This document shows, in pieces, positions 9,258 through 15,946 of a stretch of DNA of 15,946 nt. Below the pieces are notes generated by a model. That model did no database searches, was not told the origin of the DNA, and saw only the letters and a program-made list of their open reading frames with translations. The position numbers and the translations under genes are program-made. This DNA is from Planctomycetaceae bacterium UBA4655 (lineage in GTDB: Bacteria > Planctomycetota > Planctomycetia > Pirellulales > UBA1268): positions 1 through 15,946 of the forward strand of contig DHLZ01000204.1 of NCBI GenBank assembly GCA_002405515.1, given 5' to 3'. Each line of letters begins with the position of its first letter. Position 1 is the first letter of the stretch.

Positions 9258-9653
9258 ATGGCCAAGGCATCTTCCGAACCCACCACCACCACCGCCGCCA
9301 GCACGAGGGGCTCCGCCGCCAGCATGAAGGGCGCGGGCCACGAGTACGCCGTCATCGTCGATGGCGGCCGGCAGTACACCGTGCAGGAGGGGCAGGAGCT
9401 CGAGATCGACTTCCGGCATCTTCCGGCCGGCAGCGAGGTCGTGTTCGACGAGGTGCTCGCGGTGAGCCGCGCGGGCAAGCTCACGCTGGGAGCCCCGAAG
9501 GTGAAGGGGGCAACGGTGAAGGCGAAGGTGGTCGGAACCGAGCAGGGCGAAAAGATCTACGTGCAGAAGTTCGCCCGTCGGAAGAACTACCGCCGCCGCA
9601 CCGGCCACCGCTCGCTCCACACCCGCGTGAAGATCGCGGGTATTTCCGGCTGA
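9258..9653 (+). CDS. rplU: 50S ribosomal protein L21 with an N-terminal extension of about 27 aa
   Basis: YAVIVDGGRQYTVQEGQELEIDF...VVFDEVLAV...GEKIYVQKFARRKNYRRRTGHRSLHTRVKIAGISG is collinear with E. coli L21, MYAVFQSGGKQHRVSEGQ...[28 protein letters not shown]. The extension MAKASSEPTTTTAASTRGSAASMKGAGHE has GC3-biased codons. An alternative internal ATG lies at 9324. Confidence 0.9.
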   Translation: MAKASSEPTTTTAASTRGSAASMKGAGHEYAVIVDGGRQYTVQEGQELEIDFRHLPAGSEVVFDEVLAVSRAGKLTLGAPKVKGATVKAKVVGTEQGEKIYVQKFARRKNYRRRTGHRSLHTRVKIAGISG

Positions 9654-9818
9654 TCAAGCGATCGGCGGGCTCATGGGTGCGGGCCGCGGGTATCTCCGGC
9701 TGATCGAGCGATCGGCGGGCTCATGGGTGCGGGCCGCGGGTATTTCCGGCTGATCAAGCGATCGGCGGGCTCATGGGTGCGGGCCGCGGGTATCTCCGGC
9801 TGATCGAGCGATCGGCGG
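9636..9818 (+). repeat. 50-bp tandem repeat, about 3.65 copies (units 9636-9685, 9686-9735, 9736-9785, partial 9786-9818), beginning within the last codons and stop of rplU
   Basis: Unit gcgggtat(t/c)tccggctgatc(a/g)agcgatcggcgggctcatgggtgcgggcc. Units alternate between two variants (tt..a / tc..g), giving a 100-bp super-unit in about 1.8 copies. The first unit encodes AGISG-stop of L21. Each unit has an imperfect inverted repeat ccggctgatc...gatcggcgg. The array sits between convergent rplU and the flotillin gene. Confidence 0.95.
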
Positions 9819-11980: not shown

Positions 11981-13879
11981 TCAGCCGAGGAGCCCGGCGA
12001 GCGGGCCCCCGCGGACGCAGAGGGCATCGACCTTCGCCGTGACCGCCGGGTCTTCCTCGACCGGCGGAGCGTGGTGGGGCTTGAGCCGGGCGTCGATGAC
12101 GAGCGGGCCCTCGCAGCCCCAGTGCTTCTGACGGACCCTCGCCGCGACACCGTGGACGTCGGCCGCGGGGTTCGACCGCGTGAACGTCACCCAGAGAAAG
12201 TTCTCGAGGCTCGCGGCCGAAAAGCCGGAGTCGTCCACGACCACGATGAGCGGCCATGGACGCAGCGGGTTGTCCGCGTGGATCGCATCGCAGAGCCGTT
12301 GGATCCCGGCCGACCAGGGGGAGGCGGCCGCGAGGCCGGCGAGCGACGTGGCGGCAGGGGCCGCGTCGTCCGAGGCGAGCGTCGGCGCGGGATCGATCCT
12401 CGGGCCCTCGATCGCGACGACGCCCGGCAGGCAGACCCTCGGGTTGCGGAAGCCGTCGGGGAGGGCGATGCCGGCGGGCAGTTCCCGCGAGAGGCTGCGG
12501 ATCGCCGGCCCACGGGCGGCCACCACGAGCTTCGAGCCGGCGTTGAGCCCGCTGCCGGAGTAGTCGAGCGTGTCGATCGTGGTCTCGGTGTGGAAGTGGC
12601 AGTCGCGCCGCCAGTCGGCCCGCGACAGCACGTGCGCGAGGAAGGGCCGGATGTCGTGGGCATCGAGGCCCGGCGCATCCCCCCCCGACACGATGAAGAG
12701 ATACTTCGCGAGCGACAGCTGCCCTTGGCCGAGGATCGCGGAGGCCTGCGTGAGCAGCTCGGCCGGGCGGTTCGACCGCTGCCAGGGCAGGTAGCGCTCG
12801 CTCCCGACGGCAAGCAGAAGCGGATGCACTCCCGACGCATCGACGGCATGAACGCTCCGCACGCCAGGCAGCACCGTCGGGATCACCGGTCCGGTCAGCT
12901 CGTGCACGAGCCAGCCGAAGAGCGTGTCTTCCTGCGGCGGGCGGCCGACCACCGTCACCGGCCAGATCGCCCCCTCGCGGTGCCAGACCCGCTCGACCTG
13001 CATCACCGGAAAATCGTGCCGTTTGGCATAGTAGCCGAGGTGGTCGCCGAACGGCCCCTCCGGCTTCGTCGTTCCCGGCTGCACCGTCCCCTCGATCACG
13101 AAATCGGCGTCGGCATAGATCGCGGGTCGTCCTCGCCTCGCGATCATCGGGATGCGGTGGCCCGCAAGCGCCCCGGCGAAGAGCAGCTCGGAGAGCCCCT
13201 CGGGCAGCGGCATGACGGCGGCGACGGCCATCGCCGGCGAGCCGCCGACGAACACGTTCACCTTCAGTGGCTCGCCGCGGGCGAGCGCCGCGGCATGATG
13301 GACGCCGATGCCGCGGTGGAGCTGGTAGTGGAGGCCGATCTCGCGGTCGGGCAGGTAGTCGTTGCCCGCCAGCTGCACCCGGTACATCCCGAGGTTCGAG
13401 TGTTTCGTGCCCGGCCGGTCGGGGTCTTCGGTGTAGACCGCCGGGAGCGTGACGAACGGACCGCCGTCGCCGGGCCAGCCCGTCACCTTGGGCAGCTGAG
13501 AAAGGGGGATCGAGTGGGCGACCGCCGGGCCCGATTTCACGCGACGCGGCAGCATCGAGATCGCGTCGATCGGGCTTCGCCAGTACCGCCACGGCTTCTT
13601 CAATGCTTCAGCCGGGTCGATCTTGAGCTCCACGAGCCGCTTCACCCGATCGAGCGTGCGGTGGAAGATCCGCTCGATCCGCTTTTGCGTGCCGTAGAGG
13701 TTCACGAGCACGGGGAAGGCCGTGCCAGCCGGTCGCGAGAAGAGCACCGCCGGCCCGCCGACCCGGAACAGCCGCCGCTGGATCTCCGCGATTTCGAGGT
13801 GCGGATCGACCGGATGGTCGACGACCACGAGTTCCCCCTCGCGGGCGAGCCGATCGACGCAGGATCGAAGCGATCGCAT
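11981..13879 (-). CDS. ubiD: UbiD-family (de)carboxylase; 3-octaprenyl-4-hydroxybenzoate carboxy-lyase / menaquinone MqnL-like
   Basis: [44 protein letters not shown] is collinear with the E. coli UbiD N-terminus, [49 protein letters not shown]. Full length is about 632 aa. The ATG at 13879 is the first Met compatible with the family N-terminus. The 13880-13984 extension in the ORF track lies inside the palindrome. Confidence 0.9.
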   Translation of the reverse strand: [632 protein letters not shown]

Positions 13880-13965
13880 AAAAAGGTGCCAGCCACCAAA
13901 TCTGGGTAAAATACCTTCGGCTTTATAGACATCTTGCCCAGATTTGGTGGCTGGCACCTTTTTTT
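13880..13965. repeat. Perfect 27-bp inverted repeat (13880-13906 / 13937-13963; AAAAAGGTGCCAGCCACCAAATCTGGG) around a 30-nt AT-rich spacer, with A5/T7 tails
   Basis: Read directly. Right arm CCCAGATTTGGTGGCTGGCACCTTTTT is the exact reverse complement of the left arm. The spacer taaaataccttcggctttatagacatcttg contains TATAGA/TATAAA-like hexamers in both orientations. The element fills the whole divergent intergenic space, 0 nt from the ubiD start codon and 13 nt from the osmC GTG. Confidence 0.9.
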
Positions 13966-13977
13966 GAAAGGACGCAG

Positions 13978-14388
13978 GTGGCACGAATCACGACGACGTA
14001 CGAGGGGAAGCTCCGCTGTCGGGCCCAGCACGGGCCTGCGGGCGAGACGGTGCTCACTGACACCCCGGCCGACGGCCAGGGCCGCAGCGAGGCGTTTTCG
14101 CCGACCGACCTCGTGGGAGTGGCCCTCGGGGCGTGCATGATGACGATCATCGGCATCGTCGCCGAGCGGCACGGGCTCGCGCTGGCCGGCATGAAGGCCG
14201 ACACCGTCAAGGAGATGAGCAAGGAGCCGCCGCGGCGGATCACTGTGCTCCGCACGACGCTCACGATCCCGCTCCCGCCGGATCATCCGAAGCGACACCT
14301 CATCGAGCAGGCGGCGCTCACCTGCCCCGTCCACAAGAGCCTCGCCGCCGGCATCGACGCCGCCGTCGACTTCGTCTGGACGGGCTGA
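13978..14388 (+). CDS. OsmC/Ohr-family protein (organic hydroperoxide resistance / OsmC-like)
   Basis: 136 aa. ...EAFSPTDLVGVALGACMMTIIGIVAERHG... and the ...LTCPVHKSL... Cys pair are typical of the OsmC/Ohr fold. GTG start with AAAGGA 6 nt upstream. Confidence 0.8.
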   Translation: MARITTTYEGKLRCRAQHGPAGETVLTDTPADGQGRSEAFSPTDLVGVALGACMMTIIGIVAERHGLALAGMKADTVKEMSKEPPRRITVLRTTLTIPLPPDHPKRHLIEQAALTCPVHKSLAAGIDAAVDFVWTG

Positions 14389-15728: not shown

Positions 15729-15754
15729 GCCCCGGGCTACGGCGCCCGCACGAC

Positions 15755-15826
15755 ATACGGAAGCCCGAGGCGCGAGTTTCCCTGCAGGCGTTTGCGCAGA
15801 ACGCCCGGAAGCCCGAGGCGCGAGCC
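15755..15826. repeat. Inverted (reverse-complement) copies of the window-start repeat family: 36-nt match at 15755-15790 and 19-nt match at 15806-15824, downstream of rarA
   Basis: The reverse complement of 15755-15790 is cgcctgcagggaaactcgcgcctcgggcttccgtat, identical to positions 77-112 of the start array. A second block cggaagcccgaggcgcgag recurs 15 nt later with a different spacer. The plus strand here also shares gcgcagaacg with 136-144. Confidence 0.85.
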
Positions 15827-15946
15827 GAGAGGGGCGTTGACGAGGCCCCGCGAGTGGATGCCCGGTCACGAGCCCGCCTGCACGACACCGCATTGCCGCC
15901 CGGGGGGCAGACGCATCGTCGCTACGGCGAGGATACGCCTGATGCA

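Follow-up and report, generated by a model that had tools for sequence, protein, structure and literature searches.

A palindrome between divergent ubiD and osmC genes is probably a REPIN-type element of a dispersed freshwater Planctomycetota repeat family with a cognate Y1/HUH transposase

The standard single REP sequence is an imperfect palindrome, one end of which is tagged with GTAG (or CGTC). For the REP/BIME repeats of E. coli, binding of nucleoid proteins or gyrase has been proposed. Correia elements leave TA target duplications and are presumed to derive from a parent of the DDE type; like other bacterial MITEs they can affect the expression of neighbouring genes. DNA uptake sequences occur about once per kb, also inside genes, and the DUS of Neisseria form terminator-like inverted pairs. 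Two inverted REPs around a spacer constitute a REPIN, which is mobilised by RAYTs, according to two earlier studies (PMC3337134, PMC3116915). A RAYT is expected to be vertically inherited and to occur roughly once in each genome. In the related TIRYT or TIRtron arrangement, RAYT-like tyrosine transposase genes are located between terminal inverted repeats which, unlike REPs, lack self-complementarity; Di Nocera et al. (2013, PMC3733652) describe these TIR families as moderately abundant, with single, dimeric or clustered copies. Both the REPIN/RAYT and the TIRYT systems are well described, and Planctomycetes receive a mention in this literature.

The palindrome characterized here separates the divergent genes of a UbiD-family decarboxylase and an OsmC-family protein in the window, by which we mean the whole 15,946-nt stretch of DNA that was analysed (Table 1). 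Read directly, the gap has the sequence CAT-AAAAAGGTGCCAGCCACCAAATCTGGG-TAAAATACCTTCGGCTTTATAGACATCTTG-CCCAGATTTGGTGGCTGGCACCTTTTT-TT. Two exact 27-nt arms around a 30-nt A+T-rich loop, as described in a sequence-only reading of this DNA, are thus present. The left arm had been placed at the very start of ubiD, and indeed the CAT at 13877-13879 abuts the arm and an alignment of orthologues backs this start codon; on the other side, the distance of 13 nt from the end of the T-run to the osmC start holds as well. The reading also spoke of a 22-bp GC stem, but the 22-bp core has a G+C content of only 59%. In a repeat search the inverted repeat extended imperfectly to 36 nt with 92% identity (13877-13912 / 13931-13966). 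Within the window, each strand has exactly one occurrence of the 22-nt core, while none of 200 shuffles gave two occurrences, and the G+C content at the palindrome is 48-49% compared to 65-74% in the flanking segments. When folded as RNA, the palindrome gave strong structures on both strands (-58.7 kcal/mol for the + strand and -60.2 kcal/mol for the - strand, z about -9.6 to -9.9), and the 84-mer folded as DNA reached -33 kcal/mol (z -10.5). For one arm on its own the fold has -2.8 to -3.7 kcal/mol, which is not better than shuffled sequences.

Table 1. Features of the ubiD-osmC intergenic element and its flanks (window coordinates)
Feature	Position	Strand	Remarks
UbiD-family decarboxylase gene, flanking host gene	11981-13879	-	Pfam UbiD_N, UbiD, UbiD_C
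Left arm (REP/TIR unit)	13880-13906	+	AAAAAGGTGCCAGCCACCAAATCTGGG; A-run plus 22-nt core
Left-arm A-run	13880-13884		5 nt, before 22-nt core GGTGCCAGCCACCAAATCTGGG
Loop (spacer of the doublet)	13907-13936		30 nt, A+T-rich; falls in the common 29-31-nt class
Putative -10-like box towards ubiD, TATTTT (AAAATA on +)	13908-13913	-	Orthologue comparison
Putative -10-like box towards osmC, TATAGA	13924-13929	+	Kept in orthologues
Right arm	13937-13963	-	Exact reverse complement of the left arm; T-run continues to 13965
Right-side T-run	13959-13965		7 T (5 A on the left)
Shine-Dalgarno-like motif of osmC, AAAGGA	13967-13972	+	
OsmC-family gene, flanking host gene	13978-14388	+	GTG start; Pfam OsmC

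We scanned the arm 19-mer GCCAGCCACCAAATCTGGG against one genome per species and found it in at least 117 stretches from at least 51 MAG assemblies, with up to 8 stretches per assembly among the matches listed. The arm is thus multi-copy, a question that the sequence-only reading had raised. Among the matches listed, nearly all are freshwater Planctomycetota MAGs with the labels Pirellulales, Planctomycetaceae or Planctomycetia; some arm-bearing MAGs are labelled 'Kuenenia', evidently wrongly, and we infer that single arm-bearing contigs in Chitinophagaceae, Actinomycetota and Verrucomicrobiota bins are binning errors. A near-identical MAG contig (L001, 99.95% identity) has the same element together with an identical OsmC protein. 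In 807 kb of fetched loci, 252 arm-like matches (up to 4 mismatches in 22 nt) were counted, comprising 88 hairpin pairs and 76 unpaired arms, the latter including a few same-strand neighbours. The arms therefore come as hairpin doublets, as single arms or, as described below, as the inverted ends of a transposase gene. Additional sites beyond the one by which a tile had been selected occur about once per 17 kb, which agrees with one copy in the 16-kb window.

The repeat unit of the family has a length of about 27 nt and the form AAAAA-GGTGCCAGCCACC-AAATCTGGG; two inverted units make up the 84-bp element. In the 88 pairs the spacer between the 22-nt cores is quantised, measuring 14-15, 29-31 or 40-43 nt. 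The central 13 nt of 29-nt spacers are 49% alike between loci in the better of two orientations, hence length is kept and sequence is not. In order to avoid selection bias, conservation was scored on 63 partner arms that had not been picked by the search word. At least 90% conservation per position was found for AAAA followed by GGTGCCAGCCACCAAA (the block AAAA-GGTGCCAGCCACC-AAA), the TCTGGG being less conserved and the flanks past the A-run showing no conservation. The inner tag of 170 arms reads GCAA in 68, GTAA in 37 and GTAG in 13 cases. A CRISPR-like array was considered and rejected, as only 6 cases of same-strand neighbours occur and their spacing is irregular.

Two further features of the arm ends were seen. 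At seven loci a partial tandem duplication of the arm's outer end, for example AAAAAGGTGCCAG-CGAAAAAGGTGCCAGCCACC, stands beside a full copy, and it may have been left behind by the copying mechanism or by hairpin slippage. Several copies show the variant outer end GTGCCATTCGTGCCAGCCACC in place of the A-run (L006:100-210, L084:1-120, L096:1-165, L051:300-420; L021, L043; L018, L042). In several assemblies these variants are preceded by a conserved stretch of about 140 nt, located at contig starts, which may be the end of a larger repeat. An Rfam search near the GTGCCATTCGTGCCAGCCACC variants found no family on the 140-nt stretch; the only match was a tRNA-His about 800 nt off in L084, without overlap.

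Among the fetched loci a recurring layout consists of an arm on the + strand, about 770 bp and an arm on the - strand, and it encloses one ORF with a product of 232 aa. This product matches Pfam PF01797 Y1_Tnp (37.6 and 48 bits, cutoff 23). Its only NCBIfam match is NF047646, REP-associated tyrosine transposase, with 70.5 bits, under the equivalog cutoff of 80. It also matches PDB 4ER8, the E. coli TnpA-REP (E=4.5e-9), with the HUH (NHWH) and tyrosine (RYVERNP) motifs aligned. Using tblastn on the fetched DNA we found nine transposase genes in nine assemblies, each flanked by arms on both sides with the A-run pointing outward. A protein search revealed a large family in Planctomycetota MAGs that is annotated only as 'transposase'; three members picked by protein similarity alone (71%, 70% and 63% identity) were all flanked by arms or close variants. 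This brings the arm-flanked transposase genes to 12 of the 12 examined, all from relatives of the window's genome; within the 16-kb window we found no RAYT gene. Both flanking arms of one gene (L200) carry the same C-to-A variant, and the flanking arms of another (L201) retain the core AAAAGGTG(G/C)CAGCCACCAA. The RAYT neighbourhoods are partly syntenic, with shared neighbours only in L006, L083 and L117.

A transposase gene that is flanked by arms in every case is the defining architecture of a REP/REPIN-RAYT (or TIR/TIRYT) system. We therefore assign the ubiD-osmC palindrome, with a probability of roughly 85%, to the REPIN-type elements of a dispersed freshwater Planctomycetota repeat family that has a cognate Y1/HUH transposase of the RAYT/TIRYT type. 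As the repeat is scattered in many genomes and tied to a dedicated transposase, it is not a regulator specific to this locus. The odd 'terminator between divergent genes' is explained by this known class of genome-resident elements and should not be annotated as a regulator. The REPIN/RAYT-type family of these uncultured freshwater Planctomycetota is previously undescribed: no paper with the arm sequence was found in the full-text literature searched. Its architecture suggests that the family is mobile. In single-stranded DNA the doublet would fold as a long hairpin (about -33 kcal/mol), which the transposase would recognise and cut, thereby copying or maintaining the repeats.

The planctomycete elements resemble the REPIN-RAYT system of P. 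fluorescens SBW25 and the REP/BIME repeats of E. coli in several respects: two short inverted repeats enclose a short spacer and pair into a long hairpin, many extragenic copies exist, also as singlets and clusters, copies persist at orthologous positions, and a Y1/HUH gene that aligns with E. coli TnpA-REP (4ER8) is located between inverted repeats. They differ in that the single unit is without a clear palindrome and the GTAG tag is rare (13/170). The planctomycete RAYT furthermore has a C-terminal extension of about 80 aa and stays below the NCBIfam equivalog cutoff. The hosts are Planctomycetota and not Gammaproteobacteria, and one core word is found in at least 51 species-level assemblies. 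Since a single arm is not a convincing palindrome and GTAG is rare, the family fits the TIR/TIRYT variant even better, with which it shares a tyrosine transposase gene between terminal inverted repeats that are not self-complementary. However, the GGGGWSAS motif reported for some TIRs is missing from the planctomycete repeat.

The five RAYT genes of L100 (6219-6281), L103, L117, L199 and L200 show the canonical promoter-like motif TTGAC-N17-TATACA starting from the inner end of the arm, with the ATG about 7 nt past the -10 box. This spacing suggests that the RAYT mRNA could be leaderless or near-leaderless. A reading of the loop of the window element as a copy of such a RAYT promoter finds no support, because the TATAGA of the window is 10 nt out of register with the geometry at the RAYT genes.

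We then compared the ubiD-osmC neighbourhoods of other species. Five of them carry the doublet at the same site, and there the ubiD start follows 3-8 nt after the T-run. The mean pairwise identity of these orthologous doublet loci is 97.5-98.8% in the arms and 67% in the loop, compared to 78% both over the initial 330 nt of ubiD and on the osmC side. In each locus from the DNA scan one arm had been selected by the search; hence 80 loci were refetched by UbiD protein similarity, of which 79 had a usable upstream region. This protein-based set contains six loci with an intact pair of arms and five with a single ubiD-proximal arm that is followed by GTTATAGGCA and then osmC. In three more loci the single arm is further decayed (4-6 mismatches), and in others (L120, L138, L144/L151 and L145) both arms are decayed without compensatory changes. 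No trace of the element is left in loci such as L119, L123, L153 and L165, which carry another pair of -10-like boxes (CATCGTAGCC ... TGTAGGATG). Across the ubiD-osmC orthologues the mismatches of the best match range continuously from 0 to about 8 of 22. Apart from the ubiD-osmC site, no further arms were found in 435 kb around the 79 orthologous ubiD loci, which shows the low density of the repeat.

This pattern of presence, absence and decay at orthologous loci is compatible with one old insertion, and the ubiD-osmC copy would have inserted ahead of the divergence of these species. Judged from the alignments, the insertion is old and is near-perfect in some lineages and decaying in others. 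The perfect identity of the arms had been taken as a sign of recent origin, but the insertion is common to orthologous loci whose coding flanks are only about 78% identical and the arms are therefore no such sign. The arms may be maintained through selection, through gene conversion between copies or because the transposase copies them anew. One idea is that the lineages with a near-perfect copy are those in which the RAYT system is still active. With one core word in at least 51 species-level assemblies and insertions that are near-perfect while the adjacent genes have diverged by about 20%, the clade offers a natural test of how repeats are kept: by transposase-driven copying, gene conversion or host selection.

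Two other arrangements were observed upstream of ubiD. In five loci (L160, L183, L188, L193 and L196) one arm lies beyond the -10-like box of ubiD and the neighbouring gene is not osmC, as if the repeat had been placed in this gap independently. In L129 and L143 the gap contains a different hairpin doublet with the arm AAAAAAGGGGACATCCCCCGTTTT and its complement, seemingly from a second REPIN-like family that is unrelated to the first but shares its A-run/T-run style.

The old copies bear on the question of whether the transposase alone maintains the arms. It is unlikely, though it deserves some weight, that host-level selection contributes and that the family, or at least this old insertion, has become domesticated. 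Host selection is compatible with two observations: the arms are near-perfect at an insertion that predates a coding divergence of about 20%, and the core is retained beside RAYTs that are only 63% identical. In its domesticated form the element may act as a symmetric module that gives the two divergent genes a common upstream context and a common U-rich one-arm leader; if this were true, expression of a quinone-pathway decarboxylase and of an oxidative-stress OsmC protein would be coupled. The arm could also be a putative protein-binding word conserved across a clade of Planctomycetota.

Coding sequence reaches the element from both sides, so the element itself most likely contains the ubiD and osmC promoters. 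Both are probably located in the loop, which has a -10-like box for either direction. Orthologues retain the box towards osmC in the form (G)TTATAG(G/A)C and at an unchanged position, even where one or both arms are lost; the box towards ubiD corresponds by position to TAGTTT or TAGATT in orthologues (AAACTA/AATCTA on the opposite strand). In that case the transcripts of ubiD and osmC would begin within an arm or immediately ahead of it, and each mRNA would carry one arm only, as a U-rich leader with the U-run just ahead of the start codon; neither mRNA would form the complete terminator-like hairpin. The symmetric back-to-back promoter considered in the sequence-only reading survives in part: the conserved boxes of the loop allow a secondary local role, but a scan of the window element with the sigma-70 promoter consensus, for which -35 and -10 hexamers should stand 16-18 nt apart on each strand, gave no match, including no -35 match for TATAGA. 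A sigma-54 promoter was also considered, as the arm has a perfect -24 box (CTGGCAC), and was rejected because no conserved GC element is present at -12 in the copies listed.

A further reading is an RNA-level element, in which the whole hairpin with its U-run would be transcribed from outer promoters and serve as a bidirectional intrinsic terminator or leader attenuator. The succession of A-tract, long G+C-containing stem and T-tract resembles bidirectional intrinsic terminators, the RNA fold amounts to about -59 kcal/mol on both strands, and many members of the family directly adjoin stop codons. However, the neighbours of the window element diverge from it, so that, as had been noted from the sequence, the hairpin cannot terminate either of them, and coding sequence up to the element on both sides leaves no space for the promoters further out that a leader attenuator was proposed to have. 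The planctomycete stem of 27-30 bp and loop of 15-41 nt are also too long for a standard terminator scan, and a consensus terminator scan found nothing at the element; an Rfam search at gathering thresholds found no family in the window. Moreover, selection on structure alone would permit compensatory changes, but what is fixed between loci and between species is the sequence of the arm, and the decayed relics show no compensatory maintenance.

The genomic context of the hairpins points in the same direction. Coding frames on each flank were assigned from GC3 periodicity, and the gaps that hold hairpins were tandem in 30, divergent in 11 and convergent in 10 cases, thus without an enrichment at the 3' ends of genes. 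This ratio is close to that of random intergenic placement and marks neither a terminator nor a promoter family. In a same-frame read-through test, none of 53 hairpins with assignable flanks was inside a continuous reading frame; a test for stop-free frames was uninformative because 91% of random 320-nt stretches in these genomes of 67% G+C pass it. In many copies the A-run or T-run is fused directly to stop or start codons. Overall we consider an RNA-level element very unlikely.

A word used by the host, such as a site for a nucleoid protein or gyrase or a DNA-uptake signal, could in principle owe its persistence to selection at the host level instead of to the transposase. An exact 19-22-mer across at least 51 species-level assemblies, which is also found beside RAYTs of only 63% identity, old orthologous copies that are still perfect, and the terminator-like inverted pairs that are likewise typical of uptake sequences would be in line with such a word. 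Nevertheless its density is low (about 1 site per 17 kb) and strictly extragenic, the copy decays freely in some lineages, and the tight physical link to the Y1 transposase gene already accounts for the family, which makes this explanation extremely unlikely. As an additional role, use by the host may apply, but the data do not require it.

The sequence-only reading had further proposed a dedicated operator or cruciform at which a regulator co-controls the quinone-pathway decarboxylase and the OsmC/Ohr-type protein. Several species do keep the doublet at orthologous ubiD-osmC loci, with arms far better conserved than the genes, and the outer 13-mer GGTGCCAGCCACC is, as read from its sequence, a near-palindrome of the size of a dimer-binding site. 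This proposal is hardly tenable, however, as the same word stands in every intergenic context at more than 160 other sites by unrelated genes in at least 51 assemblies, divergent gaps are not preferred, and many orthologous ubiD-osmC loci have both genes with no element or with relics only.

A classical MITE, that is, a deletion derivative of an IS with a DDE transposase moved in trans via its 27-bp TIRs like the Correia elements of Neisseria, is equally hard to maintain: perfect TIRs, size classes of 69-96 bp, many dispersed intergenic copies beside starts and stops, arms that also bracket a transposase gene and the resemblance to Correia elements in size and inverted ends (about 26 bp there) would suit it, but the sole gene type found between the arms is a Y1/HUH transposase (12/12), the flanks of the 88 pairs show no direct target-site duplication while the A-run/T-run recur inverted, and near-perfect arms at old orthologous insertions are unexpected for a dead MITE. 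The earlier suggestion of a MITE-like mobile element thus named the right class, a non-autonomous and dispersed multi-copy element, but two of its details do not hold: the partner is a Y1/HUH transposase, unlike that of a classical TIR/DDE MITE, and the perfect arms do not imply a recent origin.

Other repeats are present in the window as well. At its two ends (1-110 and 15747-15858) the same 48-nt tandem repeat CCTCGGGCTTCCGTATTCGGCACCTGTTCGCCTGCAGGGAAACTCGCG is found in about 2.3 copies, the two occurrences being mutually inverted, and the near-identical contig L001 ends within this 48-nt repeat. We regard it as a further, probably dispersed, repeat at which assemblies break; together with the planctomycete hairpin repeats, the repeats at the window ends are likely to cause contig breaks in these MAGs. 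At 9635-9818, in the gap directly past the stop codon of the Band7/SPFH gene, 3.7 copies of a 50-nt unit with 95% identity follow one another.
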